Shown here one piece after another: positions 7,966 through 37,932 of a stretch of 38,061 nucleotides of DNA (position 1 is its first letter; the number at the start of each line of letters is the position of its first letter). The translations under genes were made by a program, and so were the position numbers. The notes under the pieces are model-generated. The model saw only the letters and a program-made list of their open reading frames with translations. It ran no database searches and was not told where the DNA came from. The stretch comes from an uncultured Candidatus Saccharibacteria bacterium (GTDB lineage Bacteria; Patescibacteriota; Minisyncoccia; UBA6257; UBA9933). The stretch spans positions 1 to 38,061 of the forward strand of contig CAYIKS010000003.1 of NCBI GenBank assembly GCA_964364125.1, written 5' to 3'.

Positions 7966-9093
7966 ATGGCCGAGGAGGAAGAAATGGAAAAAATGAAAGA
8001 CAAAGAAGAGGAGAAGTTGGAGGTATTTATAGTCGCACCGTGGTGGAGTCTACTAATTGGTGCTGGTATTACGATCGTGGCGTCTATTCTCGCTGGGTTG
8101 TTTGGTTGGTTGATGGTGATTATTATTAGAGCCGTCATCAAACCGCCTTATTCTCCTGTCTTGTATGGAGCCCCCTTAGCGTTAACCATTCTCACGATAA
8201 TTCTTGTAGGTTTAGCTGGACTAAAAGAAAGAATTAAAGTGGCCCATAAGGGAGTCCTATTATTTCTCGGGAAACGAGTGAAAAGATGGTTATTTGACGA
8301 AGGCCGACATTGGACGCCTGCTTTAATCGCGTCTCTTGAGGAAGTGGATACAAGGAAAATAGCGAAGGATATCTCTAAAGCCGAGGCTTTCACAAAAGAG
8401 AACGTAAGGGTTTCTGTAGATACTACCATACAGTATATAGTAAAAGACCCGTATACCTATCTTGAATTGGGTCCGCAGGTAGTTGAGAAAGGTCTTGAAG
8501 ATTTAACAAAACAGGTCCTCAGGCTTGTAACTAAACAGAAAACCCTCGATCAGGCCTTAGAAATGCACCAAGAGCTGAACGATATCCTCAGAAGCGTTTT
8601 AACTCCAGGCAAAGAAACAGGGGAAGATGTAAAAAAGAAATACGGGATTACTCAGGAAATTGATAAGTCAACCGCTAAGTGGGGTATTGATGTTGTCGAT
8701 GTTTTCGTCGCTGAGGTTCAGCCGCCAGAAGAAGTATCTAAAGAACTCGAGAAGGTTAGAAAAGAAATAGCACACCGAGAAGCCGAGGAGATAGAAACAG
8801 CCCATATTATTAACATGTTAAACAAGCTTCAGGGCGAAGAAATAGAAATCTCTGAGGAAAAATCGGGAGTAGGAGGGGGAGTAAAAGTTAAGATTAAAAA
8901 ACCTTTAACTCCGGAAGCAAGCGCCTTATTATTCCAGACAGAAAGAGGGAAGGTTACTAAGAATGTTGACGAAAAGAGAATAGTTGTCCCCGAAGAGAGC
9001 GGACAACTTCTTAAAGAAATTGCTGCAAACTTTAAACCTATCACAATAATAGTAGGAAAAGAAACGGCGTCAAAAAACGAAGGGAGGGATTAG
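7966..9093 (+). CDS. SPFH/band-7 (stomatin/prohibitin/HflK-like) membrane protein with a coiled-coil tail
   Basis: 375 aa: N-terminal TM hairpin, then an SPFH-like core (VSVDTTIQYIVKDPYTYLE...WGIDVVDVFVAEVQPPEEV) and a charged helical tail. The ATG at 7984 has a better RBS (gaggagga) and may be the true start. Confidence 0.8.
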   Translation: MAEEEEMEKMKDKEEEKLEVFIVAPWWSLLIGAGITIVASILAGLFGWLMVIIIRAVIKPPYSPVLYGAPLALTILTIILVGLAGLKERIKVAHKGVLLFLGKRVKRWLFDEGRHWTPALIASLEEVDTRKIAKDISKAEAFTKENVRVSVDTTIQYIVKDPYTYLELGPQVVEKGLEDLTKQVLRLVTKQKTLDQALEMHQELNDILRSVLTPGKETGEDVKKKYGITQEIDKSTAKWGIDVVDVFVAEVQPPEEVSKELEKVRKEIAHREAEEIETAHIINMLNKLQGEEIEISEEKSGVGGGVKVKIKKPLTPEASALLFQTERGKVTKNVDEKRIVVPEESGQLLKEIAANFKPITIIVGKETASKNEGRD

Positions 9094-9094
9094 A

Positions 9095-9541
9095 ATGGCC
9101 GCTATAGGCATTGACCAAAAAATAAAGAAGTGGGTAAAAAACGGATTAATCCTATCCTTGGCTTGTTTAGTCCTGCTGATTATCTTAGGCATCGCTCTTT
9201 CGGGCAAGGAAGAAGACGAGGATAAAAAATTATCAGCTCCTCAACCGCGGGCGGCGGTAGCGGAAGCAAAAAAACCAACCATCATCTGGTCGAGATGGAA
9301 AGAGGTCATACTGGCTGATGATTGGTCGGAGTTTCAGGATACGCCGACGAGATGGGACAGAGTTGTGCCACCCAAAAGAGGAAAAGTGGAGGTGCTTTTT
9401 GAAAACGGCGCCTACCACCAGCTAAAAGGCGACGACACAGACGAGCAGTATACGGCAATTAATATCCAGACCGATGGCAGATTCCGGCTTAAAGGCACAC
9501 CGGGAGCCAAAGCCACCATCTGGATTGGTAAAGAAGTTTGA
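9095..9541 (+). CDS. Single-pass membrane protein with a small beta-rich ectodomain, function unknown
   Basis: 148-aa ORF starting 1 nt after the SPFH stop. It has a TM helix (LILSLACLVLLIILGIAL). No family recognised. Confidence 0.6.
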   Translation: MAAIGIDQKIKKWVKNGLILSLACLVLLIILGIALSGKEEDEDKKLSAPQPRAAVAEAKKPTIIWSRWKEVILADDWSEFQDTPTRWDRVVPPKRGKVEVLFENGAYHQLKGDDTDEQYTAINIQTDGRFRLKGTPGAKATIWIGKEV

Positions 9542-9547
9542 ATTTAA

Positions 9548-9586
9548 ATCCCTGCAAGAATATTCTTGCAGGGATTTCTCTTTTTT
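9548..9586. terminator. Bidirectional rho-independent terminator between convergent units
   Basis: A perfect 28-nt palindrome (ATCCCTGCAAGAAT/ATTCTTGCAGGGAT, 9548-9575) is followed by a T-rich run to 9586 and preceded by A/T. Confidence 0.7.
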
Positions 9587-9611: not shown

Positions 9612-9917
9612 TTACCCCATTATTGTAAGAATAATCAATGCCGCGCCTTTTGCGGCTAAAATAATTACGAAGCCAATCGCCGCCCACATTATAGTTTTTC
9701 TGCCGTTGGCCACTTTTGCGGGATCTTCGCGGGCGGTCAAAATCTGAAACCCGCCGATTAAAATCATTATCGCCAAAATCGGAACGCTGATATAAATAAT
9801 ATAATTTATAATATTATTAATAACTTGGACGATGTCGTTTACGCCTAAAGGATTAGGAATAGTTACGCTAACCGACTTTTCCCTCTCTAATACTTCTGCC
9901 AAAGCTTCTTTTAACAT
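9612..9917 (-). CDS. VirB2/TrbC-like (T4SS-type) pilin paralogue P1, atypical with no obvious signal peptide
   Basis: 101 aa. It shares the two-helix core with the neighbours (ILAIMILIGGFQILTAREDPAKVANGRKTIMWAAIGFVIILAA). Confidence 0.55.
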   Translation of the reverse strand: MLKEALAEVLEREKSVSVTIPNPLGVNDIVQVINNIINYIIYISVPILAIMILIGGFQILTAREDPAKVANGRKTIMWAAIGFVIILAAKGAALIILTIMG

Positions 9918-9953
9918 ACCCAGAAGAAAAATTTAAAAATTTCTCCGCTGGGT
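9918..9953 (-). other. 36-nt imperfect hairpin directly abutting the P1 start codon
   Basis: ACCCAG...CTGGGT arms with an AT-rich inner stem. Two further small palindromes follow: CCCAT-TAG-ATGGG at 9956-9968 and GGGAATTCCC at 9966-9975. No T-run and no SD. Confidence 0.3.
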
Positions 9954-10007
9954 ATGCCCATTAGATGGGAATTCCCGCTAATGAGCAGATTTTTGTTTCT
10001 CAAAATT

Positions 10008-10370
10008 TTACGCTCCGGGCGCGACTAAGAAAGTTCTGATGATTGACTCAAAACCGACTGCGAGTAAGGCGACAATAATCGCCACGACCGCGTAGATTAT
10101 CCGGTTTTTGGCTGTTTTGACTCTTTCTTCATCGCCGCCGGCGGTCAAGTAAGAAAAAGCTGCTAAAATAATCATCAAGACAGCAATAATGAAGAAAATT
10201 ATGTAAACCCATCTGACTATCTGACCGATGAGTCCGACTATGCCGCCGACTGTTCCCGGACCGGTTGGCGTAATACCGGTGTATTGCTGACCGTACTGTT
10301 GCGCCAGCGCGACATTGCTTAAAGCCAGAACGCTTAAAGTAATGATTGGCGAAATTTTTGTTTTTAACAT
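10008..10370 (-). CDS. VirB2/TrbC-like (T4SS-type) pilin paralogue P2
   Basis: 120 aa with a signal peptide (…LSNVALA|QQ), then WVYIIFFIIAVLMIILAAFSYLTAGGDEERVKTAKNRIIYAVVAIIVALLAVG. Confidence 0.8.
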   Translation of the reverse strand: MLKTKISPIITLSVLALSNVALAQQYGQQYTGITPTGPGTVGGIVGLIGQIVRWVYIIFFIIAVLMIILAAFSYLTAGGDEERVKTAKNRIIYAVVAIIVALLAVGFESIIRTFLVAPGA

Positions 10371-10410
10371 TTTTGTTATTTATTGTCTTTCGACCTTTTT
10401 CAAATTTAAT

Positions 10411-10902
10411 TTATTGATTCAGGGGTTTTATACCTTCTCCGGGATTTAATGACTCCCAATCTTGCTGTTCTACAGGTAAATCTCTTTGGTCAATAAAGTA
10501 CTGTGGATTTGAGACGTTGCCGCCTGTGACACCGCCTCCTCCTCTGCCCAAAAATTCCTTGATAATTGCTTCAGCGCCAACCGCCAGAAGCGCTACGACG
10601 ATGGCAATAACGGCGTAAACCAATTGCGTATGCGCTTTTTTTATTTCTTCCGGCTGGCCGGCTTTAGTTAAATAAGTAAAAGCCGCCACAATAATGAACA
10701 AAACTGCGATAATAAAGAAAATTATATAAACGTATTTAACTACATCGCCGGCTATTTTAAAAAAACCTCTTGGTTCGCTTACGGGCGAAGGATTAATTCC
10801 TAATTCTCCGGCTGAAGGAACTTTACCTTCCTGAATTGCGAAAACCAAAATCGGCAACATAAATAAGCAAACTGTCGAAATTATAAAAAAAACATTTCTC
10901 AT
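10411..10902 (-). CDS. VirB2/TrbC-like pilin paralogue P3 with a Gly-rich/acidic C-terminal extension
   Basis: 163 aa with a signal peptide, the core YVYIIFFIIAVLFIIVAAFTYLTKAGQPEEIKKAHTQLVYAVIAIVVALLAVG and the tail GRGGGGVTGG...EQQDWESLNPGEG. Confidence 0.8.
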   Translation of the reverse strand: MRNVFFIISTVCLFMLPILVFAIQEGKVPSAGELGINPSPVSEPRGFFKIAGDVVKYVYIIFFIIAVLFIIVAAFTYLTKAGQPEEIKKAHTQLVYAVIAIVVALLAVGAEAIIKEFLGRGGGGVTGGNVSNPQYFIDQRDLPVEQQDWESLNPGEGIKPLNQ

Positions 10903-10908
10903 AATTTA

Positions 10909-11235
10909 TCAGGCGCCCTCAATAAAGGACAGAATAATTTGGGCGGCGCCGACCGAAATCAAAGCGATGGCGATTGCCACGACCGCCCAAAGAATCTGGC
11001 TCCGGGCGCTTTTTATTTTTTCCGGGTCGCCTTTGGCAGTCAAAAAATTAAAAGCGGCAATAATAATGAAAATAATTGCCACAATAAAGAAAATTGTATA
11101 GGTGTAACGGGCTACTCGCGCCAAGATGTCGAAAATTTTACTGGGCGAGTCTATGGGCGAGCCCTTAGCCAAATCGCTAGCCGCCTGTTGAAAATCTTGA
11201 GCCAAAACAACGGAGACGATGGTAAGTTTTTTCAT
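10909..11235 (-). CDS. VirB2/TrbC-like pilin paralogue P4
   Basis: 108 aa with the core YTYTIFFIVAIIFIIIAAFNFLTAKGDPEKIKSARSQILWAVVAIAIALISVG. Confidence 0.8.
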   Translation of the reverse strand: MKKLTIVSVVLAQDFQQAASDLAKGSPIDSPSKIFDILARVARYTYTIFFIVAIIFIIIAAFNFLTAKGDPEKIKSARSQILWAVVAIAIALISVGAAQIILSFIEGA

Positions 11236-11239
11236 AAAT

Positions 11240-11602
11240 TTAACACTTTAGTTGATTCCAAGGCCCAAATTCGCCCTTGGCTATTAATTTAATTAGTGTA
11301 TCAAGAATTAACCAAGCAAGCAAGACGATGACAAGGCCGATAATCGCTGCCGTTACGATGTCCTTACCTTGCTTTGCCCGCTCCGGTGAAGCGCCGGCGG
11401 TTAAAATCATTATCCCTCCATAAACAATAGCGATAACGGCTATGGGGATTGCTATTTTTACGCCGAAATCAAGCACATTTTTAACTAATTTAAAAAGGTC
11501 GCAAAACTGACAACTTAAACCTTCGCAGGGAATTAAAGCCGCGGAAACAGAGGCTGCAGAAAGCACAAAGCAGAAAGTGGAAAGTAGAATTATTTTTTTC
11601 AT
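11240..11602 (-). CDS. VirB2/TrbC-like pilin paralogue P5, Cys-containing
   Basis: 120 aa with a signal peptide (…SVSA|AL), a mature N-terminus holding three Cys (CEGLSCQFC), the core IAIPIAVIAIVYGGIMILTAGASPERAKQGKDIVTAAIIGLVIVLLAW and a terminal Cys. Its ATG overlaps the upstream stop (ATGA). Confidence 0.75.
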   Translation of the reverse strand: MKKIILLSTFCFVLSAASVSAALIPCEGLSCQFCDLFKLVKNVLDFGVKIAIPIAVIAIVYGGIMILTAGASPERAKQGKDIVTAAIIGLVIVLLAWLILDTLIKLIAKGEFGPWNQLKC

Positions 11603-12918
11603 TTCGTCAAATCATTAATTTCATTCTCGGCTTTTTTGAGGGCGTCGCCGGAAGTCAGTTGGCCGTTCAATATTGATTGAATCATATTGGAGAAAATTCG
11701 TTTAATCGCCGTGCTGTCGGCTTGATACCAGGAGCGGGTAGTCAGGGCTTGTCTGGCGAAAACTCCCAAATCCGGGTCATAAAGATATTTGTCAATTAAA
11801 ACTCTTAACGCCGGCGGCAGGCGATTGGCCTTAAGAAACTGTTCGGAAACATTCGGGTTGGCGGTTAAATAAAGAATAAAATTCCAGGAAAGAGCCGGGT
11901 TCTGACTGTATTTGGAAGCGGTCAATCCCCAATAATTGGCGTAATTTACGGGCCGGTCTTTATTAAGCTGAAGCATTGGAGAAACGCCGACGCTCAGAAA
12001 GGGATTTCTTGTTTTAAGAAGCGGAATCGCTGAAGCGTAATTGAAAATAATCGCGGTATTGCCCTCGCTGAAACTGTCCAAAGAATTGCGGAAGTTGTCG
12101 CTCCAGGTGTAATTGGCGCTCAAGGGATTGGCGAACTGGACGTAGAAATTCAGAGCGTTCGTTCCTCTTTCACCGAAATCAACGCTTTTGGACTGCGGGT
12201 CAAACATCGCGGCGCCGGATTGAAGCATTAACAACGCCAATAAATCCGTTGCTTTATTGACGCTGTATTCCGAACCGCCGATGGCAGCCGCGGCTTTTAC
12301 AATTTCATTCGTCTGAGGATTGAGCTCGCGGAGCCGGGGAATTAAATCGTTCAAGTCCTGCCAGGTTTTCGGCGCCAAAGCAACGGCTTTGGCGTCAAAA
12401 AAATCGCGATTGTAAAGAAGCGCCAAAGTGTCAAGATACAGCGGCAGGGCGAAAATTACGGACTTGTCCTCAGCCCGTTGAAGAACAAAATCCTGTTCAA
12501 TAACCTGAGGGTACATTTGGCGGAACTGGAAAAAAGGGAGTTGGGCTTCGACAAGAGGCATTATTTTGTCAAAATGTTTCGGCAACCAAGTGTTGTGGAG
12601 CATAAAAATGTCCGGTCCTTTGCCGGCTGCCAAGGCGTTAAGCAAAGCCCTTTCATATTCGGATTCGCTAAATTGAGTATATTCAATGTTAATGCCTTTA
12701 TTGGCTTTCTGATATTCATCAATCACTCCCTTAATAACTTCGCTGTCAACAACTCCCCAAAAAGAAATTCTTATTCCTTCGCCGCCGCCGAAACTAAAAC
12801 CGCCCGGCGTAGTTTTCTTGACCGGAATCACGCCGAAAAACATCAAGGCGACGATTAAAACGATAAATCCTGCGACAGCGACGATAATTATTTGATTACG
12901 AGTAAGTTTCACAGACAT
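11599..12918 (-). CDS. Extracellular solute-binding protein (ABC-type family 1 fold), N-terminally membrane-anchored, with no cognate permease or ATPase nearby
   Basis: 439 aa with an N-terminal TM helix. Similarity to sugar-type SBPs is visible ([33 protein letters not shown]...[16 protein letters not shown]). Confidence 0.82.
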
Positions 12919-15374
12919 ATCACTCCCGCTATTTTGTCTCCTTGTTTCAGTTTCATAATTCTCACGCCTGAGGTTGCCCGGCTGGCCAGGCGAACGCCCG
13001 AAATCTTGATTTTGATAACTTGTCCCTTTGCGGAAATCGCCAATAATTCTTCTTCTTCGGCGATGACCTGTGCCGCGACAATCAATCCGGTTTTGGAAGT
13101 GATTTTCGCAGTCTTAATTCCCGAACCGCCTCTGCTCTGGGTTTTGTAATCCTTAAGCGGCGTCTGCTTGCTAAACCCGTTTTCCGTCACAATCAGTAAG
13201 TTTTGACTTTTGCCTGCCTGCCGGCAAGGCAGGACTTTTGACTTTTGACTTTCTTTTATTATATCAATTCCGGCTACAAAATCATCTTTCTTTAGTCTTA
13301 TTGCTTTTACGCCGGCAGCGGCTCTGCTCATCGGCCTTAATTGCGATTCTTTAAATCTAATCGCTTGGCCATGAGCAGTCGTTAAAATAACTTCGTCCTT
13401 ACCCGAAGAAAGTTTCACCCATTTAAGAGCATCGCCCTTATCAAGGTTAATGGCGATGATGCCGCTCCTTCTGACATTGCTGAAATCTTGAAGCGGGGTT
13501 TTTTTAATCACTCCGTTTTTCGTCGCCATCACCAAGTAATTCTGGATTCTGAGTTCTGAGTTCTGAATTTCATTAGCGTAGCTAATGATGGCGCTGACGT
13601 TTTCATCTGTAGGAATTTCCAAAAAATTCTGGATGATCTTGCCCTTTGAAATTCTTGAGCCGGCTGGAATCTCGTAGACCTTTGTCTGGAACGCCCGTCC
13701 TTTGTCGGTAAAAAACAGGATATTGTCGTGGGTTTTGGCCGAAAGAAAATGGGTCAGTAAATCCTCTTCGCCGACTTCGGAGCCGATGAGGCCCTTGCCG
13801 CCGCGGCGCTGGCTGCGAAAACTTGTTGGCGGAACTCTTTTTATGTAACCGCTCTGGGATAAAGTAATCACCGCTTCTTCTTGAGGAATCAAATCCTCCT
13901 CCTTAAATTCCTTGAGTCCGCCGGCAACCACTTTAGTGCGGCGCTCATCCGCGTATTTATTTTTAAGTTCCGAGAGTTCGTCTTTAATCACCTGAAGAAT
14001 TTTCTCCGGACTTTTCAGCAGAATTTCCAGTTCTTTGATTAACTTTTTCTTTTCTTTCAGTTCGTCTTCTATCTTTTGGCGTTCCAGCGCCGCCAAGGTC
14101 TGGAGCCGCATTTCCAAAATGGCGTTCGCCTGAATCTCGGTCAGCTTGAAATTTTTAATGAGGTTCTGCTGGGCTTCATCGCGGTCTTTTGATTTTTTAA
14201 TTGTTGAAATTATCTCGTCAATCGCCGACAGCGCCTTCGTCAGTCCTTCCAAGATATGTTCCCGCTCTCTGGCTTTTCGCAAATCAAATTCCGCCCGGCG
14301 CCTGACCACTAATTTCCGATGTCCCACAAAAGCCCTTAAAATATCCCGCAAAGACATTAGTTGCGGCTGAATGCCGTCTGCCAAGGCGATTAAATTTAAA
14401 TGAAAATCCTTTTGAAGGTCGGTGTGTTTGAAAAGTTGATTGAGAATTTTTTGGGGGCTGACGTCGCTTTTGAGTTCAATGACGATCCGCATTCCCTCCC
14501 GATCGCTTTCGTCCCGGACGTCGCGAACGCCTTCAATTTTTTTCTCCTGAACCAATTCGGCGATTTTGGTAATCAACTCGGCTTTGTTCACCTGATAAGG
14601 AATCTCGGTGATGACAATCTCAAACTGCCGGTTTTTCTTTTCGGTAATTTCAGCTTTGGCTCTGATGGTGACCGGCCCGCGGCCCGAACCGTACGATTCA
14701 ATAATGGCTTTGCGATTGTAAATAATTCCGCCGGTCGGAAAATCAGGACCCTGAACAAATTCCATCAATTCTTCGGTAGCGGCCTTGGGGTGGTCTATTA
14801 AATGAACGGCTGCGTCAATTACTTCGCCTAAATTATGAGGCGGCACATTGGTCGCCATTCCCACCGCGATTCCGGAAGAGCCGTTAAGCAACAAGTTTGG
14901 CAATTTTGCCGGCAAAACTTTCGGTTCTTGGCGGGTGGCGTCGTAATTCGGCTGCCAATCAACGGTTTCTTTTTCAATGTCAAAAAGCAGTTCCTCGGAG
15001 ATTTTTGAAAGCTTCGCTTCGGTATAGCGCATGGCAGCCGGCGAGTCTTCGGTTGAGCCAAAATTACCTTGACCCTGAATAAGGGGGTAGCGAAGAGAAA
15101 AATCTTGAGCCATTCGGGCTAAAGCGTCATAAACTGCCACATCGCCGTGCGGATGGTAGCGGCCAAGACAGGACCCAACGACGGTTGCTGATTTTCTGAA
15201 TTTCGCGCCGTGAGTTAATCCTTCTTCCCACATTGTCCATAAAATCCGGCGGTGAACCGGTTTAAGTCCGTCGCGAACGTCCGGCAGAGCGCGCGAAACA
15301 ATCACACTCATCGCGTAATCAAGATAAGATTCCTGCAACTCTTCGGTTATTTCGCGTTTTTCTATATTAGTCAT
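12909..15374 (-). CDS. gyrA: DNA gyrase subunit A
   Basis: 821 aa with canonical N-terminal motifs ([33 protein letters not shown]) and a beta-pinwheel C-terminal domain. Confidence 0.97.
13199..13254. repeat. Heptamer array (AGTTTTG, ACTTTTG | ACTTTTG, ACTTTTG, ACTTTCT) interrupted by a 21-nt GC-rich palindrome (13213-13233), inside gyrA
   Basis: Counted base by base. The palindrome CCTGCCT-GCCGGCA-AGGCAGG forms a 7-bp stem. The whole 56 nt is translated as [18 protein letters not shown]. Confidence 0.9.
13538..13565. repeat. Imperfect heptamer array AATTCTG GATTCTG AGTTCTG AGTTCTG inside gyrA
   Basis: Counted base by base. The coding strand reads CAGAACT-type units, translated as [11 protein letters not shown]. 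Confidence 0.8.
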
Positions 15375-15379
15375 CGCTC

Positions 15380-15655
15380 TTACTCAATTATTATTGTTCT
15401 CTCCGTCCCAATAATTCCGGTGATATAATTTATCGCTTTGCCGGCGCCTGTTCTCATAACTTGCCAAAAACCCGCCCCGCTTGGCGCACTCGGCGCTTCT
15501 TGTTTTGGTTCCCCGATTTTATCAAGGACGAAATTTAAATAAATAACCCAGAGTCCGACAATCAAAATCATCGCCGCGGCGCTCAACCCAATTAACCAAC
15601 GCTTCTTTCTTGCTTCGTCGGCATTCTGAAGTTTTTCAATAAATTTTCGTATCAT
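15380..15655 (-). CDS. Small single-pass membrane protein, function unknown
   Basis: 91-aa ORF with a TM helix ([21 protein letters not shown]). Its ATG overlaps the upstream stop, and it ends 5 nt before the gyrA start. Confidence 0.55.
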
Positions 15656-16284
15656 ACGAACAAAGGAATCACCTCGGTTTTTTTTATAGCCGCCAAATCT
15701 TTTTTCTTAACGGTTAATTTATCCCGTTTTTCTTTGTTTTCTTTATGATTCAATTCTTCAAGAAAATTTTTTAAATCCGCCGATTGCCGTTTTAATCCCG
15801 GCAGTTTGAAAAAAGCCGGGACAACGATTTTGGGCTCAATTTGTTTTATTAATTTTATTGCCGCTTCTTGGGAAATAAAAGGTCTGCCGCCGGCCGGAAT
15901 GAATAAAATGTCAATTTCCTCTAAATGTTCGGCTGTTTCCGGTTCCGGCGTTTCCGAAAGATGGCCCAAAAAACAGAGCCGGATGTCTTCAATTTCCGTC
16001 AGATAAACGGTTTTTATATACTGGTCGGATGATTCTTTTTTTAAGCCAAGACCAACGATAGTCGTTCCTTTTAAATCGTATTCGCCCGGGCCGTAAATTA
16101 GTTGATGAGTTGATGGGTTGATGGGTTCTTTGGGCGCCGGAAACGAAGTTAAGGTTTTAAGAATAATGTCGGATTTAAAACGCGGCGGGGTGAGGCCGCT
16201 TGAGGGTTCAACGGGGTCGGTTAAAATTACTAGATTGCCGCTCTGGATTTTAAAACACCCCTCGCCGTAAAAAGAAATAACCAT
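15652..16284 (-). CDS. MBL-fold (metallo-beta-lactamase-like, UPF0173-type) protein; canonical HxHxDH not evident
   Basis: 210 aa. The N-terminus MVISFYGEGCFKIQSGNLVILTDP resembles small CPR MBL-fold hydrolases. Confidence 0.7.
   Translation of the reverse strand: MVISFYGEGCFKIQSGNLVILTDPVEPSSGLTPPRFKSDIILKTLTSFPAPKEPINPSTHQLIYGPGEYDLKGTTIVGLGLKKESSDQYIKTVYLTEIEDIRLCFLGHLSETPEPETAEHLEEIDILFIPAGGRPFISQEAAIKLIKQIEPKIVVPAFFKLPGLKRQSADLKNFLEELNHKENKEKRDKLTVKKKDLAAIKKTEVIPLFV
16101..16128. repeat. Octamer array GTTGATGA GTTGATGG GTTGATGG GTTC inside the MBL-fold gene
   Basis: Counted base by base. Translated on the minus strand as EPINPSTHQLI. Confidence 0.85.
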
Positions 16285-16361
16285 ACCAAAAAATCTCTAA
16301 TACTATTATATGACATTTCCTCTTGCTTTTCAACTTTTATTTTTGTAGTATATTTCACATT

Positions 16362-18254: not shown

Positions 18255-20093
18255 ATGATGAAAACTTTATCCAAAAACATTTTTTGGGCGATGGCGACGC
18301 TTTTGCTAATCGCGTTTATTTTTTCATTGTTTTATACGGAACAGAAACCGGCAACGGTTTTAAGTATTGACCAGTTGGTTGCCAAAATAAACAGCGGCGA
18401 GGTTTCCAAAGTTATTGTCAGCGGTAATGATTTGAACATTGAATTAAAAAACGGCGAGAAAGCGATTTCTAAAAAAGAAACAGAGGCCGGCTTGTCTGAG
18501 ACCTTGAAAAATTACGGCGTTGATTCAACAGCTCTCCAGAAGGTCGGCTTGGAAATCAAAGACGAATCCGGCTGGCAATACTGGCTCAGTATTTTAATTC
18601 CTTCGCTTCTGCCTCTTTTAATCATCGGCGTTTTCTTCTGGCTGATGTTCCGGCAGGCGCGCACCGGAATGAGTCAGGCCTTTACTTTCGGTAAAGCCAA
18701 TATCCGGCTTTTCAGCCAGTTTAAGGACCGGATTACTTTCAAGGATGTCGCGGGCCTTCAGGAAGCCAAACAAGAATTGATGGAGGTGGTGGATTTTCTT
18801 AAAAATCCGAAAAAATATCTGGATATTGGCGCGCGCATTCCCAGAGGCGTTCTGCTTTACGGCCCAACCGGAACAGGAAAAACCTTGTTGGCAAGGGCTG
18901 TGGCAGGCGAGAGCAACGTGCCGTTTTTTCATATTTCCGGTTCGGAGTTTGTGGAAATGTTTGTCGGAGTGGGCGCAAGCCGCGTCCGTGATTTATTCCA
19001 AACCGCTAAAAAAGCCGGCCGGGCAATACTTTTTATTGACGAAATCGACGCGGTTGGCCGCGAAAGAGGAGCGGGTCTTGGCGGCGGCCACGATGAAAGA
19101 GAACAGACCCTGAATCAGATTTTAGTTGAAATGGACGGCTTTGAAAGAGATGACACGAGAATCGTCGTTGCGGCAACCAACCGGCCGGATGTCCTCGACT
19201 CGGCGCTTCTTCGGCCCGGCAGATTTGACCGAAGAGTTGTGCTTGACCTGCCGGACATTAACGACCGCGAAGAAATTCTAAAAATCCACGGTCGCGGAAA
19301 GTCATTGGCCCGAGATATTGATTTCCGAAAAATCGCGATTCGCACGCCCGGATTTTCCGGCGCCGATTTGGCTAATTTAATGAACGAAGCGGCGATTTGG
19401 GCAGCCAGAAAAAATCAATCGCATATCACTCAGCAAGACGCCTTTAATTCCATTGAAAAAGTCCTGCTCGGACCGGAACGCCGCTCGCGGGTGCTGTCAA
19501 CCAAAGAAAAAGAAATAACCGCTTATCATGAAGCCGGACATTCCTTGGTGGCGACCAGCTTGGCGAATGCCGACCCGGTTCAGAAAGTTTCCATTGTTGC
19601 GCGCGGCCGGGCCGGAGGATATACTTTAAAACTGCCAATCGAGGAAACCTATCTGCGGACAAAATCTCAGTTTATGACTGACTTGGCGGTGATGTTAGGC
19701 GGATATGTTTCCGAGCAAATCACTTTCGGCGATATTTCTACCGGCGCTTCCAATGATTTGCAAATGGTTTCGGAATTGGCGAGAAAGTTGGTAACAAAAT
19801 TCGGAATGAGTGAAAAACTCGGTCCCATTACTTACGGAAAAACTCAGGACCTGATTTTTCTCGGCAGGGAAATCGCGACTGAAAAAGATTACTCGGAAAA
19901 AGTGGCCGCGGAAATTGACAAAGAAGTTAAAGGGTTTATTGAAAAAGCGCGGAAAACAGCGGAAAAAATCATCAAATCCCGACGCAACGCCTTAAAAGCC
20001 ATTGCCAAACAACTGATTGAAAAAGAAACTTTAGAAAAAGAAGAATTTGAAGCGTTGATAAAAAGTTTCCGGCTAAAACCGATGCGCGTGTAG
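18255..20093 (+). CDS. ftsH: ATP-dependent zinc metalloprotease FtsH
   Basis: 612 aa with Walker A (GPTGTGKT), Walker B (LFIDEIDA), the SRH region and the zinc motif HEAGH. Confidence 0.97.
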
Positions 20094-20157
20094 CTCAACT
20101 GGTTAGAGCACCGAGCTTATACCTCGGCGGTTCTTGGTTCGAGTCCAAGCACGCGCA
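20084..20157 (+). tRNA. tRNA-Ile with anticodon UAU (AUA decoder), no encoded CCA
   Basis: 74-nt cloverleaf: acceptor GCGCGTG/CACGCGC, D arm GCTC-AACTGGTTA-GAGC, anticodon stem CCGAG/CTCGG with loop CTTATAC, T arm CTTGG-TTCGAGT-CCAAG and discriminator A. The first 10 nt overlap the ftsH 3' end. Confidence 0.85.
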
Positions 20158-20166
20158 CACTCGCCT

Positions 20167-21206: not shown

Positions 21207-21627
21207 ATATTATCGTCCTTTCGTTTATTTTTCCCCCGTGCTTGAATTTTATCCAAATCGCGTCCTTCGACAGAATTCTTTTTATTTTTTCCGCCCATTC
21301 AATTAAAACGATATTTTGCGGATTTTTAAATATTTCTTTCAGCCCTAATTTTATTAGTTCTCCGGCTTGCTGAACGCGATAGCAATCAATATGGTATATA
21401 TTCTTAAATCTTTTAACTAAAACAAACGTCGGGCTGGTGATTTTTTTCTTTATTCCGGCGGCTCTCAAAAATCCCTGGACAAAGGTCGTTTTCCCGCTTC
21501 CCAAATCGCCGCTTAAAGCAATTATCAAAGCACCTTTTGTTTTAAGCCGCTTTTTTGAAATTTCTTTATATAAAAGGCGGGCGAGGTTTTTTGTTTGAGC
21601 GACGGAAAAAGTTTTCAAATTATTCAT
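21181..21627 (-). CDS. tsaE: tRNA t6A37 biosynthesis ATPase TsaE (YjeE)
   Basis: 148 aa with the P-loop LSGDLGSGKTTFVQG and the downstream motif PTFVLV...YHIDCYR. Confidence 0.9.
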   Translation of the reverse strand: MNNLKTFSVAQTKNLARLLYKEISKKRLKTKGALIIALSGDLGSGKTTFVQGFLRAAGIKKKITSPTFVLVKRFKNIYHIDCYRVQQAGELIKLGLKEIFKNPQNIVLIEWAEKIKRILSKDAIWIKFKHGGKINERTIIFKQYFRNI

Positions 21628-22168
21628 TGTTTAAATCCAATTTTTTAATTATTAAAATTGAAGCCAAAGCCAAAAATAAAGCGATTCCCAAGCCGAGCAA
21701 AATAAAATTTGCGCCTGGCAGTCGGCCGCTATTATATACGATAGCGGAATTTTGGTTGATTAAGTTTTCGGAGACGGGTTTTTCTTCGGCGTTAAGGACA
21801 GAGATATTTTCTTTGCCCGGAGTCGGCTGACTGGCAAAGACAAAATTATTTCCTTGCCGTATCAAACTTTTGCCTTCTGGCGCGGTGCCGACGTATTCAG
21901 CTTTATCAATTAAGTTTCCACTCCGGTCGTAAAGGAAAAGCGTTTCGCCGTCGTTGTTTAAGGAAATTTTTGTTGTTTTGTAATTAAAAATTGCGTAATC
22001 TCCCGGTCTTATTCTTATTTCTTTGGGAAAAATAAAAGTTTTCCCCGAGGCGTCCTTGAGCTGCCAGTCGGAAAGGTTGATTTCTGATTCGCCGTTGTTA
22101 AACAATTCTATCCATTCAGCGTCGGTATCTTTGCCGACTGGATTGGGAAGAAATTCATTGATTATCAT
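21620..22168 (-). CDS. Lamin-tail-domain (LTD) protein with a C-terminal TM anchor
   Basis: The N-terminus IINEFLPNPVGKDTDAEWIELFNNGESEINLSDWQLKD is an LTD signature. The C-terminal helix is GANFILLGLGIALFLALASILII. Confidence 0.75.
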   Translation of the reverse strand: MIINEFLPNPVGKDTDAEWIELFNNGESEINLSDWQLKDASGKTFIFPKEIRIRPGDYAIFNYKTTKISLNNDGETLFLYDRSGNLIDKAEYVGTAPEGKSLIRQGNNFVFASQPTPGKENISVLNAEEKPVSENLINQNSAIVYNSGRLPGANFILLGLGIALFLALASILIIKKLDLNNE

Positions 22169-23334: not shown

Positions 23335-25023
23335 TTACCATTCCAATGGTCCGGTAATTCCTTCCACTTCTTCAAGCGTCGTTATTCCGGAAATAACTTT
23401 CAAAATTCCGTCCTGCTGCATCGTCGCCATTCCTTGCTCTAAGGCAAATTTCTGGATTTTCGGTTCGCCGGCTTGGGAAGTAATCAACTCTTCCGTTTCC
23501 GGACCGACCGACAAAAGTTCGTAGATGGCGATTCTTCCTTTGTAGCCGGTGTTGTTGCATTTCGGGCAACCGACCGGCTCAAAAATTTTAATTTCTTTAA
23601 AATTATTTTTATTCACTCTTTTGGGCAATTTTGTTAAAAAGTTTTTAATTTTTATTTTTAAGTCATTGGAGGGGTTTGTCTTTTCTTTTTTACATTCAAG
23701 ACAGAGCCGACGCACCAATCTTTGGGCAATAATCAAATTTAACGCCGGGCCGATGCTTGACGCTTTTACTCCCAAATCAAGCAAGCGGGGAATGGCGCCG
23801 GCCGCGGTGTTGGTGTGAAGCGTTGAAAAAACCAGATGTCCGGTCAAAGCGGCCTGAACCCCGATTTCTCCTGTTTCTTTGTCGCGGATTTCACCCACCA
23901 GTATCACGTCCGGGTCCTGACGCATCAACGAGCGCAAACCATTGGCAAAAGTGTAGCCGGCCTCTTCATCAACCTGCGTCTGTTCAATTCCTTCCAGATG
24001 ATATTCAATCGGGTCTTCAATGGTGATGATTTTTATCTCCGGGCTTTTTTTGTGTTTTAAGAAGGCGTAAAGCGTGGTGGTTTTACCCGAGCCGGTCGGG
24101 CCGGTGTTGAGAATCATCCCGTTGGGCCTTTTTAATTCTTTTTCAATAATTTCCAAATCGTCTTTTCTTAATCCCAGTTCAGGCAAATCCAAGCTGATGG
24201 TTTCCGGGTCAAGCAAACGCATCACCACCACCTCGCCGAATTCCGAAGGCGCGATGGCCACCCTTACTTCCACTTCCTTGTTGGGAAATTTTATGGTAAA
24301 ACGGCCGTCCTGGGGCTCGTCATGAATGTTAATTTTTAATCCGGAAAGGAGTTTGACGCGGGAAAGCAAATATAAATAAACGCCGGGTTTAAAATTTCCG
24401 AAAACTTCGTGGAGAATACCGTCTATTCGCAAACGCAGATTAACCGTTTGTTTTGTCGGCTCCAGATGAATGTCCGAGGCCCGATTAGCCATCGCGCCGG
24501 CCAAAAGAATTTCCAAAATCTGAGCAGTTTGGCCGCCGGCCTGCCCCAAAACGTCTAAAGCGCTTTTAACGCCGTCTAAAGTTGTAAGACCGCTCTTTAA
24601 TTCAGCCAATCTTTTTTCGTCAATTTTGACCCGGCCGGTAATTTCTTCGGTTTTCTTGGTGGAAAATTTATAAAAACTCCAGGCGTATTCAAGATTACTC
24701 AACGAAACGACGAAAATTTTCAGCTGGTAATCCTTAGCTTTTAAGTCATTAATCAATTCTTTGGTTTCGGAAAGTTCCGGGTCATAAACAACGATGGCCA
24801 GCCGCTGTTCTTTGATTTCAATGGGCGCGGCTTTGGCTTTTTTTGCCGAATCTTCGGGAATTAAATCGTACGCCTCAACATTAATCGGCGCGGTTGACAA
24901 ATCAATGTACTCCAAATCGTTCTTAACCGCCCGCCTTTGGGCGTCACGCTCTTCGGCCTCCCGGCGCGCCTGAACGAGCTTTCCCTGTAAAATTTTGGCG
25001 AAGTCCTTGTCTTTTGTGGGCAT
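23335..25023 (-). CDS. pilB: Type IV pilus / type II secretion family assembly ATPase (PilB/GspE type)
   Basis: 562 aa with Walker A GPTGSGKTT, Asp and His boxes (MRQDPDVILVGEIRD, GHLVFSTLHTN) and a C-terminal tetracysteine (CLECKK...CPKCNNTGYKGR). Confidence 0.92.
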   Translation of the reverse strand: MPTKDKDFAKILQGKLVQARREAEERDAQRRAVKNDLEYIDLSTAPINVEAYDLIPEDSAKKAKAAPIEIKEQRLAIVVYDPELSETKELINDLKAKDYQLKIFVVSLSNLEYAWSFYKFSTKKTEEITGRVKIDEKRLAELKSGLTTLDGVKSALDVLGQAGGQTAQILEILLAGAMANRASDIHLEPTKQTVNLRLRIDGILHEVFGNFKPGVYLYLLSRVKLLSGLKINIHDEPQDGRFTIKFPNKEVEVRVAIAPSEFGEVVVMRLLDPETISLDLPELGLRKDDLEIIEKELKRPNGMILNTGPTGSGKTTTLYAFLKHKKSPEIKIITIEDPIEYHLEGIEQTQVDEEAGYTFANGLRSLMRQDPDVILVGEIRDKETGEIGVQAALTGHLVFSTLHTNTAAGAIPRLLDLGVKASSIGPALNLIIAQRLVRRLCLECKKEKTNPSNDLKIKIKNFLTKLPKRVNKNNFKEIKIFEPVGCPKCNNTGYKGRIAIYELLSVGPETEELITSQAGEPKIQKFALEQGMATMQQDGILKVISGITTLEEVEGITGPLEW

Positions 25024-26913: not shown

Positions 26914-29016
26914 GTGGGTAAAAAAAGGAGATTATTTTTAAAAATTATTTTTTTGCTTTTCCTAATGATTCTTGGGTTGGCTCTTTTTGGCTTGGCGGCC
27001 GTAAGTAAGATAGCCAAAGAACTGCCGAATCCCGAGCAATTTGCCAGCCGGCCGATTATAGAATCAACTAAAATTTACGACCGCGCCGGCGAGATTTTGC
27101 TTTACGAAATTCACGGCGAAGAAAAAAGAACGGTGATTCCCTTTGGTGAAATTCCGGATTACGTGAAAAAGGCGACATTGACAATTGAAGATAGAAATTT
27201 TTACACGCATCAGGCTTTTGATTGGCGGGCGGTGCTTAGGGCTCTTATTGTAAATATTATAGAGGGGAGGGTGGCTCAGGGCGGTTCAACTATTACCCAA
27301 CAATTGGCAAAAAATACCTTCTTGAAGCCGGAAAAAACCATAGAAAGAAAAATTAAAGAGGTCGTTTTGGCTTATTGGTTGGAACGCAATTATTCCAAAG
27401 ATGAGATTTTCAATTTATATCTAAATCAAATTTCTTACGGCGCCAGCGCTTATGGCATTGAAGCCGCCGCCAAAACTTATTTTGACAAATCAGCCAAAGG
27501 GCTGACCCTGTCCGAGGCCGCGACTTTGGCGGCGCTGCCGCGCGCTCCGACATATTACTCTCCTTGGGGGCCGCACGCCGACGAGCTGGAACGCCGCCGA
27601 AATTACATTTTGGAACAGATGCTTGAATTGGGATTTATTGATGAAGAAGAAAAAGAGCGCTCCAAAAACACTCAACCGAAATTCGCCGTTCGGGGCCTCG
27701 GCTCAATTAAAGCCCCACACTTTGTAATGATGGTTCGCGATTATCTTGTTAATAAACACGGCGAAGAAGCGGTGGAGAAATCCGGGTTTAAGGTAATAAC
27801 CACTCTGGATTGGAAAATGCAGGAAATCGCCGAAAGAGTTGTCGGAGAAGGGGCGGAACGCAATGAATTATTATACCAAGGGAAAAACGCGGCTTTGGTT
27901 GCTCAGGACCCGAAAACCGGCCAAATTCTTGCCCTGGTTGGTTCACGCGATTATTTTAACGAAGACGTTGAGGGTAAATTCAACGTTGCTGTCCAAGGAT
28001 TAAGACAGCCGGGCTCGGCTCTTAAGCCATTCGCTTATCTTACGGCTTTTAAAAAAGGTTATACGCCTGACACTTTTCTTTTTGATTTACCGACGGAGTT
28101 TTCTTCTTATATAAATGTCTGTCCGTTGATTAATATAAATTATTCCGATAAAAATCCGCTTTGTTTCCATCCCCAGAATTTCAGCCAGACATTTCAGGGG
28201 CCGGTGACTTTTCGTCAAGCCCTGGCTCAATCAATTAATGTGCCGTCGGTGAAGGTATTGTATCTCGCCGGTCTAGCCGAAACCATTAAAACCTCACAGG
28301 ATTTTGGAATCACCACTTTGAACGATTTAAGCCGTTTCGGCCTTTCCCTGGTTTTGGGGGGCGGCGAAGTGAAATTAATTGAAATGGTCGGGGCTTACTC
28401 GGTTTTTAGCCAAGAAGGCGTAAAACATCAGCAATCGTTTATTCTTCGGATAACAGACAATCAGGGTATGATTTTAGAACAATATCGCGACCAAGCAACG
28501 CAAGTCGCAGAACCGCAATATATAAGATTAATTAATAATATTCTTTCTGACGAAGAAGCGCGCCGGCCTCTTTTCCAAAATAGTTTTAATTTAACCGTCT
28601 TCCCCAATAGAGAAGTGGCTTTGAAAACCGGGACCACTAATGACTTCCGCGACGCCTGGGCAATTGGCTATACTCCGTCTTTGGTGGTTGGCGTGTGGGC
28701 GGGCAATAATGACAACAAACCGATGCAAAAGCAAGCCGGCAGCATTTTGGCGGCCGTGCCGATCTGGCACGCCTTTCTTAATGAAATCCTAAATAATTAT
28801 CCCGAAGAGTTTTTTAATCGGCCCGAGTCATTGCCGCTTATTGAAAAATTGATGTTTAACGGGAATTATATCGGTGAAGACAATCAATTTCACGATATTC
28901 TTTATTACATTGACAAAAACGACCCGTTAGGACCGATTCCAGAGAATCCCGAAATTGATTCCCAGTTTTACAATTGGGAAGAGCCGGTAAAAAACTGGAA
29001 ACCCCTTACGCCTTAA
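26914..29016 (+). CDS. Class A penicillin-binding protein (PBP1A type: glycosyltransferase plus transpeptidase)
   Basis: 700 aa with an N-terminal TM helix and GT51 motifs (TIEDRNFYTH, GGSTITQQLAKN). The transpeptidase motifs are SALKP (SxxK) and KTGTT. Confidence 0.92.
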   Translation: MGKKRRLFLKIIFLLFLMILGLALFGLAAVSKIAKELPNPEQFASRPIIESTKIYDRAGEILLYEIHGEEKRTVIPFGEIPDYVKKATLTIEDRNFYTHQAFDWRAVLRALIVNIIEGRVAQGGSTITQQLAKNTFLKPEKTIERKIKEVVLAYWLERNYSKDEIFNLYLNQISYGASAYGIEAAAKTYFDKSAKGLTLSEAATLAALPRAPTYYSPWGPHADELERRRNYILEQMLELGFIDEEEKERSKNTQPKFAVRGLGSIKAPHFVMMVRDYLVNKHGEEAVEKSGFKVITTLDWKMQEIAERVVGEGAERNELLYQGKNAALVAQDPKTGQILALVGSRDYFNEDVEGKFNVAVQGLRQPGSALKPFAYLTAFKKGYTPDTFLFDLPTEFSSYINVCPLININYSDKNPLCFHPQNFSQTFQGPVTFRQALAQSINVPSVKVLYLAGLAETIKTSQDFGITTLNDLSRFGLSLVLGGGEVKLIEMVGAYSVFSQEGVKHQQSFILRITDNQGMILEQYRDQATQVAEPQYIRLINNILSDEEARRPLFQNSFNLTVFPNREVALKTGTTNDFRDAWAIGYTPSLVVGVWAGNNDNKPMQKQAGSILAAVPIWHAFLNEILNNYPEEFFNRPESLPLIEKLMFNGNYIGEDNQFHDILYYIDKNDPLGPIPENPEIDSQFYNWEEPVKNWKPLTP

Positions 29017-30124: not shown

Positions 30125-30244
30125 TTAATTTATAAATATCTTATTGTTATAGTAGAGATTGTTAATTTGTTAATAAGGCAAAATTAAACATTTAAACATT
30201 CAAATATTAAAACATTTATGTTGGTAAAACTTGTGGATTTTAAT
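30125..30244. promoter_or_regulatory. AT-rich dnaA-dnaN spacer: possible oriC half or DNA-unwinding element
   Basis: An 8-nt-period array of AAACATT occurs at 30186, 30194, 30210, with a degenerate copy at 30202. A DnaA-box-like tgtggattt lies at 30232-30240. Confidence 0.4.
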
Positions 30245-36738: not shown

Positions 36739-36741
36739 AAT

Positions 36742-37778: not shown

Positions 37779-37782
37779 ATCA

Positions 37783-37917
37783 TTACACAGAAATCCTTTT
37801 TCTCTCCTTTCTTCTCCGTCTTTGTAAAACAGCCCGGCCGCCCGCTTTTCGCGACCGTCTCAGAAATCCGTGCGTTCGCGCTCTTTTTTTCTTTTTTGGC
37901 TGATAAGTGATGGACAT
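37783..37917 (-). CDS. rpmH: 50S ribosomal protein L34 (below the ORF-track size cut-off)
   Basis: My own translation is [44 protein letters not shown], which carries the L34 signature TYQP..K.R.R.HGF..R. It ends 4 nt before the rnpA start. Confidence 0.9.
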
Positions 37918-37932
37918 ATTTTTATTATTATC

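Follow-up and report, generated by a model that had tools for sequence, protein, structure and literature searches.

Five divergent T4SS_pilin genes joined to a carbohydrate-type solute-binding protein gene in a gene block conserved across Parcubacteria

Gene content and limits of the block

The window described in this work is the whole stretch of 38,061 nt, from an ultra-small bacterium of the CPR (Parcubacteria). According to its ORF list, five pilin genes lie in it in one direction on the minus strand (9612-11602), and they are named A, B, C, D and E by the order of transcription. The encoded proteins are pilin A (11240..11602; 120 aa, with a signal peptide; PF18895 score 42.7 bits), the three B/C/D-type proteins, viz. 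pilin B (10909..11235; 108 aa, 31.2 bits), pilin C (10411..10902; 163 aa, 33.2 bits, with an acidic and Gly-rich C-terminal tail of 45 aa) and pilin D (10008..10370; 120 aa, 45.2 bits), and the NPLG-type pilin E (9612..9917; 101 aa, 52 bits). The gaps between them are 4 (A-B), 6 (B-C), 40 (C-D) and 90 nt (D-E), and both the sizes and the gaps that the first-pass annotation had given for these co-directional ORFs agree with the ORF list. The ATG of pilin A overlaps the stop codon of the gene for a membrane-anchored solute-binding protein (SBP) of the family-1 carbohydrate type (11599..12918, minus strand; 439 aa; SBP_bac_1 6.6e-28), which ends in ...AAATGA, and the start of the SBP gene overlaps by 10 nt the stop of gyrA (15374..12909), located directly 5' of it. 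Upstream of gyrA on the same strand are a gene for a conserved 91-aa protein without a Pfam match (15380..15655) and, as the first gene of the block, that of an MBL-fold hydrolase (Lactamase_B_3; 15652..16284; Pfam 7.6e-25). The distance from the start of the MBL gene (16284) to the stop of pilin E (9612) is 6673 nt, and the two overlaps and the string of about 6.7 kb noted earlier are thus as described.

A promoter-like site on the minus strand, TTGAAA-17-TATAAT, which matches the consensus at 11 of 12 positions, is present upstream of the MBL gene (16305..16333) and is likely the start of the co-directional block, this call being a consensus match alone in a region where promoter-like sites are not more numerous than in shuffled sequence. 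At the other end, between the convergent pilin E gene and a gene for a 148-aa protein, there is a perfect 16+16-nt palindrome (9546..9577; counted as a 14-bp stem by the promoter/terminator scan), which is likely the terminator closing the block. The block thus appears to extend from the promoter-like site 5' of the MBL gene to the palindromic hairpin 3' of the pilin E gene. The tight packing indicated in the first-pass annotation is seen here, but to say that no room is left for internal signals would be too strong, as the D-E gap holds a strong RNA hairpin (9915..9956, minus strand; MFE -26.6 kcal/mol, z = -6.15, with none of 200 shuffles as stable). The start codon of pilin E lies inside the 3' arm of this hairpin, which may damp the expression of pilin E, and the same gap in six relatives also contains strong hairpins (z -5.0 to -7.3). 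Pfam scans of the larger ORFs detected no gene for VirB4, VirB6, VirD4, an ABC permease or an ABC ATPase in the 38-kb window, in accordance with the earlier statements that the T4SS genes are absent from it and that the SBP lacks a transporter partner there; a PilB (T2SSE) gene is located at 25023..23335.

Family membership and topology of the five proteins

All five proteins exceed the gathering cut-off of PF18895 (T4SS_pilin; 26.6 bits), and by this profile they are members of that family. The paralogy proposed for them at first reading is low, the identity to pilin D being 43% for C, 38% for B, 28% for E and 21% for A, but it is real as judged from profile scores and is not a chance likeness of hydrophobic peptides, because the five proteins score 31-52 bits against this cut-off. 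The further proposal that they are VirB2/TrbC-like pilins holds for PF18895, whereas homology to the canonical VirB2/TrbC proteins was not demonstrated by profile, hhalign or Foldseek comparisons. The matches to PF04956 (TrbC/VirB2) are all below its gathering cut-off of 27.9 bits (E 23.7, D 19.2, A 17.6 and C 11.5 bits; no match for B), and hhalign against five alpha-proteobacterial VirB2/TrbC sequences was not significant (E = 0.096, probability 0.6). Further, HMM searches of PDB sequences gave no conjugative pilin, and in a Foldseek search of the PDB no match reached E <= 0.001 and none of those listed was a pilin, a null result that is compatible with distant homology, as fold searches have little power with a query as simple as a helical hairpin. 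The word pilus thus rests here on the family name and on the sub-threshold TrbC matches. In NCBIfam, each of the five proteins has its best match in NF045849, the 'Mbov_0395 family pilin-like conjugal transfer protein' of Mycoplasma ICEs (18-38 bits, E 1e-9 to 2e-3, all below the cut-off of 40 bits). The NF045849 genes have a monoderm T4SS context, as the present ones presumably do, but they are single copies on mobile elements whereas the genes described here form a chromosomal array.

In hydropathy profiles, pilins A, C and D each have a hydrophobic segment at the N-terminus and, after it, two further long ones, and pilin B has a short signal-like N-terminus. AlphaFold2 models of pilins D and A (pLDDT 70.8 and 73.1, respectively) consist of a signal helix and a helical hairpin, with helices at residues 41-76 and 81-116 in D and at 29-68 and 73-109 in A. 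The layout of a signal peptide plus a hairpin that had been predicted is therefore recovered, with the exception of pilin E, for which no signal peptide was found by hydropathy in this genome, while its orthologues of 60-64% identity have one; the lack of a signal peptide in this copy speaks against the pilus reading. In their small size, signal peptide and two-helix hairpin with a short charged loop, these proteins resemble the canonical VirB2/TrbC/TraA pilins (PF04956; Agrobacterium T-pilin, RP4 TrbC), and they differ from them in the sub-threshold PF04956 scores and the negative hhalign and Foldseek results. Two other identities were considered and rejected. Type IV (T4P) prepilins have a class III signal peptide with a G|FTLIE-type cleavage motif and one N-terminal hydrophobic helix, whereas this motif is absent from all five sequences, which have two long hydrophobic helices, as the first reading had also concluded. 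A holin or bacteriocin-immunity identity, which that reading had named as a possible refutation, was discarded in view of the absence of any such family among the Pfam matches and of PHROGs matches that are weak and to families without an assigned function.

The solute-binding protein and its linkage to the pilin genes

The SBP has an N-terminal TM helix followed by a Gly-rich linker, and it is matched over its full length by the profiles SBP_bac_1 (6.6e-28) and SBP_bac_8 (1.8e-23). The nearest solved structures are sugar SBPs (5ci5 and the trehalose/maltose-binding protein 1eu8), with which it shares the full-length match, conserved aromatic residues and an N-terminal anchor, and in the alignment of its family 58 columns are invariant, with aromatic residues in many of these. 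By these sequence criteria the protein is of the carbohydrate type. It differs from the SBPs of ABC importers in having no permease or ATPase gene nearby and in the pilin gene that is next to it in 75 of 76 loci.

Across Parcubacteria the arrangement MBL-91aa-gyrA-SBP-pilins recurs as a conserved unit, in about a hundred genomes of relatives. The MBL gene precedes gyrA in almost every related locus, and at least 43 of these loci have a homologue of the 91-aa protein at the corresponding place. When species-representative genomes were scanned starting from the SBP, a pilin start was found within 300 nt of it in 75/76 loci, and gyrA was directly upstream in 65 of the 69 loci with room for it. 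When metagenomes were scanned starting from the pilins, the SBP was directly upstream in 29 of the 31 arrays with room, and one more array (L096), in which the SBP is adjacent across an inversion, brings this to 30/31. The SBP-pilin synteny expected from the single genome is thus borne out very strongly in both directions (75/76 and 30/31), and by itself this synteny does not prove a shared function. The MBL gene and gyrA keep their places in the block equally well.

It can be argued that the SBP is an ordinary ABC-importer receptor, with its partners encoded elsewhere, and that it is a neighbour of the pilins since the gyrA operon is rarely rearranged. We regard this explanation as unlikely, while giving it substantial weight. 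The three other genes of the block (MBL, 91-aa and gyrA) are kept in it just as well without a plausible link to a pilus, and the SBP matches the family-1 profile in the normal way from end to end. However, in three loci where gyrA has moved (L023, L030 and L068) the SBP still adjoins the pilins, the gene order 3' of the array is not conserved, and in relatives the SBP stop often overlaps the pilin start or is at most 10 nt away from it. In addition, no ORF with an ABC-ATPase signature, viz. a Walker A motif together with an LSGGQ-type signature, is present in the window or within 10 kb of the SBP in 80 related genome loci, and sampling from the pilin side recovers the SBP almost without exception. 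In the reading that we prefer, the SBP would be made together with pilin A through translational coupling, and at the cell surface it would serve as a carbohydrate receptor that works with the pilin structure and not with an ABC permease, its role being either host-glycan recognition or substrate capture.

Pilin types, the assembling machine and the significance of the block

Arrays of this general kind are already known. In Patescibacteria, 441 tandem arrays of divergent VirB2-like pilins, of 2-11 genes each, have been reported, with a mean identity between copies of 25% and a maximum of 54% (Quinonero-Coronel et al. 2025, PMC12102498). An array was defined there as at least two PF18895/PF04956 genes in tandem or with one non-pilin gene between them, and the five consecutive genes described here, with gaps of 4-90 nt and 21-43% identity, are by this definition and by their divergence a member of the published type. 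They share with the other patescibacterial arrays the tandem PF18895 genes, the low identity of copies (~25% on average), the position near the replication origin and, probably, the association with a T4SS of the monoderm type without a relaxase. In Ca. Southlakia epibionticum, six pilin genes (SEML1_0014-0019) are essential (Wang et al. 2023, PMC10633639); they lie inside the T4SS gene cluster with no adjoining SBP, whereas the present array is joined to gyrA and the SBP gene and is ~26 kb from the expected T4SS cluster. The results described here go beyond the searched literature in the conserved SBP-pilin block, the three position-fixed pilin types and the position of the T4SS cluster in the closest relative; no mention of the SBP link, the three fixed types or the D-E hairpin was found in that literature.

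The paralogues fall into three types, viz. A, E and B/C/D, separated by median score margins of 20-45 bits. Type A opens 74/76 arrays, type E most often comes second and no array begins with B/C/D. The copy number of B/C/D depends on the lineage and ranges from one to several, with array sizes of 1-7, and D is the commonest type in relatives (91 of 120 database matches are D-like), which makes pilin D a candidate for the bulk subunit. Type E is marked by its NPLG motif and type A by the motif C..C..CD ahead of helix 1 and a C-terminal PW...C. Unlike the canonical VirB2/TrbC proteins, type A has four conserved cysteines, distributed over its two tails, and these could tie the N- and C-terminal tails together. 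T-pilin and TrbC undergo head-to-tail cyclisation, which the type A cysteines, as a putative disulfide, might replace. Type A of some lineages has long Cys-rich extensions or large extracellular domains. Judged by sequence comparison, the three types are ancient and predate the divergence of the Parcubacteria lineages. Natural fusions of types also occur, viz. E+D (P0257) and D+D, and polyproteins with 7, 8 and 16 hairpin domains exist; chains of up to 16 domains are hard to square with the subunit-by-subunit extrusion of a long pilus. Of the heteropolymeric or switchable filament suggested by the first-pass annotation, the heteropolymeric part is favoured over the switchable one: the ancient types with fixed positions, the mixed-type natural fusions and the lack of any recombination repeats or invertible segments in the search for them argue for co-assembly over antigenic switching.

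With regard to the machine that assembles these proteins, the closest relative, whose YidC is 91% identical and which is collinear with the window over 35050-37921, has a cluster of PrgI, TraC-like and VirB4-like genes directly after rpmH. In three more distant relatives the T4SS cluster is not beside rnpA-yidC. Because the window encodes neither an ATPase nor a channel protein of a T4SS and the contig stops 140 nt past rpmH, the location has to be taken from the relative. Very probably, the machine that assembles the pilins is encoded by a VirB4/PrgI/TraC-like cluster a short way past the end of the contig. We consider it reasonably probable that the whole forms one system, consisting of a heteromeric pilin structure, a T4SS-like machine and a sugar-type SBP on the surface. 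The types A, E and B/C/D would come together in a single heteromeric structure of the envelope, in the form of a short pilus or tube, with B/C/D as the bulk subunit and A and E as specialised low-copy subunits, and it would be built by the VirB4/PrgI(VirB3)/TraC-like machine encoded across the replication origin, just off the contig.

A doubtful alternative is that the PF18895 proteins do not form an extracellular pilus, pilin being only a family label, but a hetero-oligomeric ring or channel of the T4SS that is embedded in the membrane or spans the wall. The single polypeptides with many hairpin domains, the failure of canonical VirB2 and of the solved conjugative pilins to give a significant match, and the derivation of the patescibacterial system from Gram-positive-type T4SSs, which normally have no pili, are in its favour. 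However, the cross-matches to PF04956 TrbC/VirB2, seen also for P0257, P0276 and in the Southlakia annotation, the layout with a signal peptide and a hairpin whose two tails face outward, which fits VirB2-type pilins, and the large extracellular domains of type A in some lineages, which fit surface exposure, speak against it. It is improbable that the paralogues are interchangeable major subunits of one pilus that vary its exposed surface for antigenic or host-range variation, as PMC12102498 suggests for patescibacterial arrays by analogy with the tandemly amplified and diverged VirB2 genes of Bartonella and Anaplasma that it cites, to which a role in antigenic or host variation is ascribed: the variable B/C/D copy number and array size and the differing exposed tails (the tail of C; the Cys-rich extensions of type A) agree with it, but here the types are older than the lineage split and fixed in order, different types are fused in a single polypeptide (P0257), repeats for switching are lacking, and the six Southlakia genes are each essential, which argues against redundancy. 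A heteromeric structure of co-assembled types remains the preferred reading. It would be a long shot to go further and propose that the SBP docks on a disulfide-stapled type-A pilin as a genuine component of the Parcubacteria T4SS, forming an SBP-dependent device without an ABC permease that recognises a host glycan or passes host-derived carbohydrate to the pilin/T4SS conduit.

In the one system where this has been examined, epibiotic growth requires the patescibacterial T4SS, whose substrate and mode of action are unexplained (PMC10633639, PMC12857230). Parcubacteria are the biggest and least tractable part of the patescibacterial radiation. If the linkage described here is inert synteny, the finding shrinks to another example of a published array type. 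If the SBP does act in the T4SS, it would offer a concrete ligand for this essential and functionally unexplained system. As the SBP should be soluble once its anchor is removed, it would be an accessible biochemical entry point for unculturable organisms. The pilin genes that are detached from the T4SS locus, paired with one carbohydrate-type receptor and divided into three classes lead to testable hypotheses, and the SBP-pilin block provides a new lead on how the T4SS of these bacteria meets the host.

The gene string and the family of the five pilins

The window, an entire contig of 38,061 bp, comes from the replication-origin region of the chromosome of a Parcubacteria-group (CPR) organism, and it carries recO, a proS-like gene, metG, gyrA, an rpsA-like gene, ftsH, tsaE, ruvB, pilB, ruvC, a class A PBP gene, dnaN, dnaA, ksgA, yidC and rnpA, as well as three tRNAs. 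Among the latter is a tRNA-Ile with the anticodon TAT (20084-20158), an uncommon bacterial way of reading AUA. The G+C content is 0.32-0.33 over dnaN and dnaA (29001-31000) versus about 0.43 elsewhere in the window. The PilB-type (T2SSE) ATPase (23335-25023) has no other pilus-assembly gene adjoining it; since its position beside ruvB near the origin is also kept in two relatives (loci L092, 905-2587, and L093, 435-2144), it is taken to be a solitary gene under conservation and not the leftover of a lost cluster. Two further genes may encode surface proteins, viz. a 655-aa protein with weak DUF11 and transglutaminase-Ig matches (666-2633) and a lamin-tail-domain protein (21620-22168).

On the minus strand, the genes for an MBL-fold hydrolase (MBL; 16284..15652), a 91-aa protein (15655..15380), gyrA (15374..12909), a 439-aa solute-binding protein (SBP; 12918..11599) and the pilins A, B, C, D and E (120, 108, 163, 120 and 101 aa, in transcription order; 11602..9612) form an unbroken co-directional string. 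The gyrA stop and the SBP start overlap by 10 nt, the SBP stop is overlapped by the pilin A start (ATGA), and the gaps between successive pilins from A to E are 4, 6, 40 and 90 nt. All coordinates and spacings in the first-pass annotation proved correct when the ORFs were rechecked, and its observation is confirmed overall, with its interpretation supported subject to corrections. The 91-aa protein has no Pfam match; in at least 43 related loci a homologue (median identity 35%) occupies the corresponding place, flanked by the MBL gene and gyrA. Just downstream of the pilins, and convergent to them, an SPFH/Band-7 protein is encoded within 7966-9541; one is similarly placed in seven loci of relatives (L095, L101, L106, L108, L114, L170 and L171), often with a 148-aa protein, and several distinct SPFH-like families recur downstream of the array in other loci. 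Conservation does not extend to the genes that follow the array.

The five ORFs all pass the curated cut-off of PF18895 (T4SS_pilin), with scores of 31-52 bits versus 26.6, and the family is very large: a threshold of E <= 1e-3 gives 56,576 cluster representatives, and one of E <= 1e-10 gives 8,515. The best NCBIfam model for all five, just under its cut-off, is NF045849, described there as a "pilin-like conjugal transfer protein" of mycoplasma ICEs. Hydropathy analysis and AlphaFold2 models of pilins D and A (pLDDT 70.8 and 73.1, respectively) point to a signal-peptide helix and, after it, two long helices that form a hairpin. The earlier description of these proteins as VirB2/TrbC-type thus stands as regards the pilin family and the hairpin layout, but PF04956 (TrbC/VirB2) gave sub-threshold matches for E, D and A, and no conjugative pilin was found in the PDB by sequence using HMMs of 5 and 117 pilins. 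An hhalign comparison of the pilin family with five annotated plasmid VirB2/TrbC proteins aligned the equivalent helix but did not reach significance, and Foldseek searches of the D and A models against the PDB returned generic helical hairpins alone (CnrX, EmrA, ATP synthase c and others), none of them at E <= 0.001, a result that is uninformative rather than negative. Because homology to characterised VirB2 could not be demonstrated, the genes are assigned to PF18895, and the term "VirB2-like" should be read as denoting a resemblance. The prepilin motif is absent from the five ORFs, in accordance with the view that they are not type IV prepilins, and a holin or bacteriocin-immunity identity found no family match in Pfam or PHROGs.

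Linkage of the solute-binding protein and the pilins

The SBP matches the carbohydrate-type family-1 proteins over its full length. When its profile was scanned against one genome per species, 80 loci were obtained, with SBP identity down to 37%, from genomes labelled as Wolfe-, Lipton-, Colwell-, Jorgensen-, Brenner-, Portnoy- and Azambacteria or as unnamed Paceibacterota. The N-terminal membrane anchor of the SBP is conserved, a Gly-rich linker is present, and 58 alignment columns are invariant, with aromatic residues in many of these. Of the 76 loci that extend far enough, 75 have the start of a PF18895 gene no more than 300 nt from the SBP stop, the sole miss being an artefact of the gene-chaining procedure, and about half of the SBP-pilin gaps are of 10 nt or less or are overlaps. 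The converse approach, in which metagenome contigs were scanned with pilin motifs, yielded 31 arrays with enough upstream sequence, and the SBP lies directly upstream in 29 of them; of the other two, in L096 the SBP adjoins the array across an inversion, and in L115 the array follows rpoC. Two further pilin-centred look-ups fell in the same conserved block. The synteny in relatives, which had been proposed as a check, is therefore upheld from both directions, and based on these sequences the SBP-pilin linkage can be regarded as real and deep. The absence of a neighbouring ATPase partner for the SBP holds more widely: ORFs with an ABC-ATPase signature are lacking from the window and, in all 80 genome loci, from the 10 kb around the SBP.

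In 65/69 loci, gyrA is directly upstream of the SBP. As the conserved block includes gyrA and the MBL gene too, a common function cannot be deduced from gene order by itself. In three loci that have lost the gyrA link (L023, L030 and L068), the SBP still adjoins the pilins. A functional link between the SBP and the pilins remains inferential.

Pilin types, their order and proposed co-assembly

Each array gene was typed in two separate ways, from the window paralogue that it matches best and from simple motifs, and the outcomes agree. Type A, with the consensus C..g.....C..CD ahead of helix 1 and pW....C at the C-terminus, opens the array in 74 of 76 cases. Type E, with NPLG ahead of helix 1, is usually at position 2, and the B/C/D type (w...if...av.fi..AAf.yLTagGd) is found at later positions and at the head of no array. 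Most often the order is A-E-D; that of the window, A-B-C-D-E, is confined to a handful of its close relatives. Lineages differ in how many B/C/D copies they have, and array sizes range from 1 to 7. Sequence comparisons of this kind indicate that the three types are ancient and position-fixed. Where an inversion splits the array (L006, 11291-13748, and L096, 6350-8807), type A stays with the SBP and the other pilins lie on the opposite strand, facing it.

The four conserved cysteines of type A are in two tails emerging on the same side of the hairpin, which may be joined by a disulfide staple. Several lineages have type A proteins of up to 451 aa, lengthened at the C-terminus by extracellular parts that are rich in Cys and Gly and have no Pfam match. 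In some Parcubacteria, extensions of 150-330 aa, mostly Cys/Gly-rich, occur on the first (type A) or a second A-like pilin (L040, 8395-9579; L046, 11322-12677; L048, 7207-8484; L043, 11284-12432; and others); they are usually C-terminal and in L048 N-terminal. Some extensions of pilin-like proteins in relatives contain H..D...HxH-like strings, but the idea that they are LAS-type peptidoglycan peptidases was dropped because Pfam found nothing beyond the pilin domain.

Pilin E (9612-9917) is the one ORF that had been described as lacking a signal peptide, and the peptide is absent in this genome, where the reading frame is closed by a TAA five codons before the ATG. A signal peptide is present in orthologues of E that are 60-64% identical to it (proteins P0346, P0353 and P0341), as in most E-type genes of relatives. 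The best promoter-like site of the region (11/12 matches) is just upstream of the MBL gene, and a perfect palindrome follows pilin E, which is convergent with a 148-aa gene. In the 90-nt D-E gap, the minus-strand RNA at 9915-9956 is predicted to fold into a strong hairpin of -26.6 kcal/mol (z = -6.15), with the E start codon inside the 3' arm. A strong hairpin is predicted in the same gap in each of six relatives with E last (z -5.0 to -7.3), and in some it looks, by eye, terminator-like, with a U-rich run after the stem. Due to this hairpin over its start codon, pilin E is probably expressed at a lower level than A-D.

The first-pass annotation had suggested a heteropolymeric or switchable filament, and of these the heteropolymeric part is favoured. 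An E-type and a D-type are naturally fused in P0257, two B/C/D domains are present per protein in P0241-P0243, and P0361, P0363 and P0469 are polyproteins with 7, 8 and 16 PF18895 hairpin domains (606, 820 and 1775 aa), P0276 being another of this multi-domain kind; such proteins imply that the assembled structure has these domains as neighbours. Given the very long polyproteins, this structure may be a membrane- or wall-embedded tube and not a long extruded pilus. As to interchangeable antigenic variants, a search for repeats or invertible segments able to drive switching by recombination found just short codon-level DNA repeats, with no long direct or inverted repeats; further, the ancient types keep a fixed order, E and D types are fused, and the six PF18895 genes within the Ca. 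Southlakia T4SS cluster (SEML1_0014-0019) are individually essential (Wang et al., PMC10633639). Together these observations favour a heteromeric structure over switching.

The probable assembling machine and published arrays

No VirB4, VirB6 or VirD4 gene is present in the window, as had been stated, and with proteins of L082 as queries no T4SS core genes were found near the SBP in the 80 genome loci. The contig ends 140 nt after rpmH. The closest relative found is L082, whose YidC is 91% identical and whose DNA is collinear with window 35050-37921 (nucleotide identity about 79%). There, rpmH and a small Trp-repressor-like gene are directly followed by an eight-gene cluster ending with PrgI (VirB3-like), TraC-like and VirB4-like (AAA_10/P-loop_TraG/DUF87) genes. 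This cluster contains no pilin gene. Its other five proteins (371, 271, 558, 761 and 319 aa; L082 1-8590) have no Pfam match, and the 761-aa protein has, as judged by eye from its sequence, a hydrophobic N-terminal half. Because L082 carries this cluster after rpmH, the assembling machine is most likely encoded just off the contig, ~26 kb from the array and across the origin. In the more distant L083, L092 and L093, the cluster is absent beside rnpA-yidC and lies elsewhere; among these four loci, L082 alone shares the origin arrangement of the window.

The core of the array belongs to a kind already reported, viz. 441 arrays of 2-11 tandem VirB2-like genes, with a mean identity of 25% between copies, in 383 Patescibacteria assemblies, whose T4SS is of a monoderm type without relaxase and is often near dnaA, dnaN, rnpA, ksgA and rpmH (Quinonero-Coronel et al., PMC12102498). 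Patescibacterial arrays were also highlighted in a 2025 review. However, in Ca. Southlakia the pilins are inside the T4SS cluster, whereas here the array is away from the T4SS locus as placed via L082. In the literature searched, in which few subscription journals were covered, there was no prior report of an SBP-pilin or gyrA-pilin link in CPR, here seen throughout Parcubacteria as an array joined to gyrA and an orphan sugar-type SBP at a distance from the T4SS locus, nor were the three position-fixed pilin types or the D-E hairpin found. Though its functional link to the pilins is inferential, the SBP provides a concrete, soluble handle on the unexplained function of the patescibacterial T4SS.
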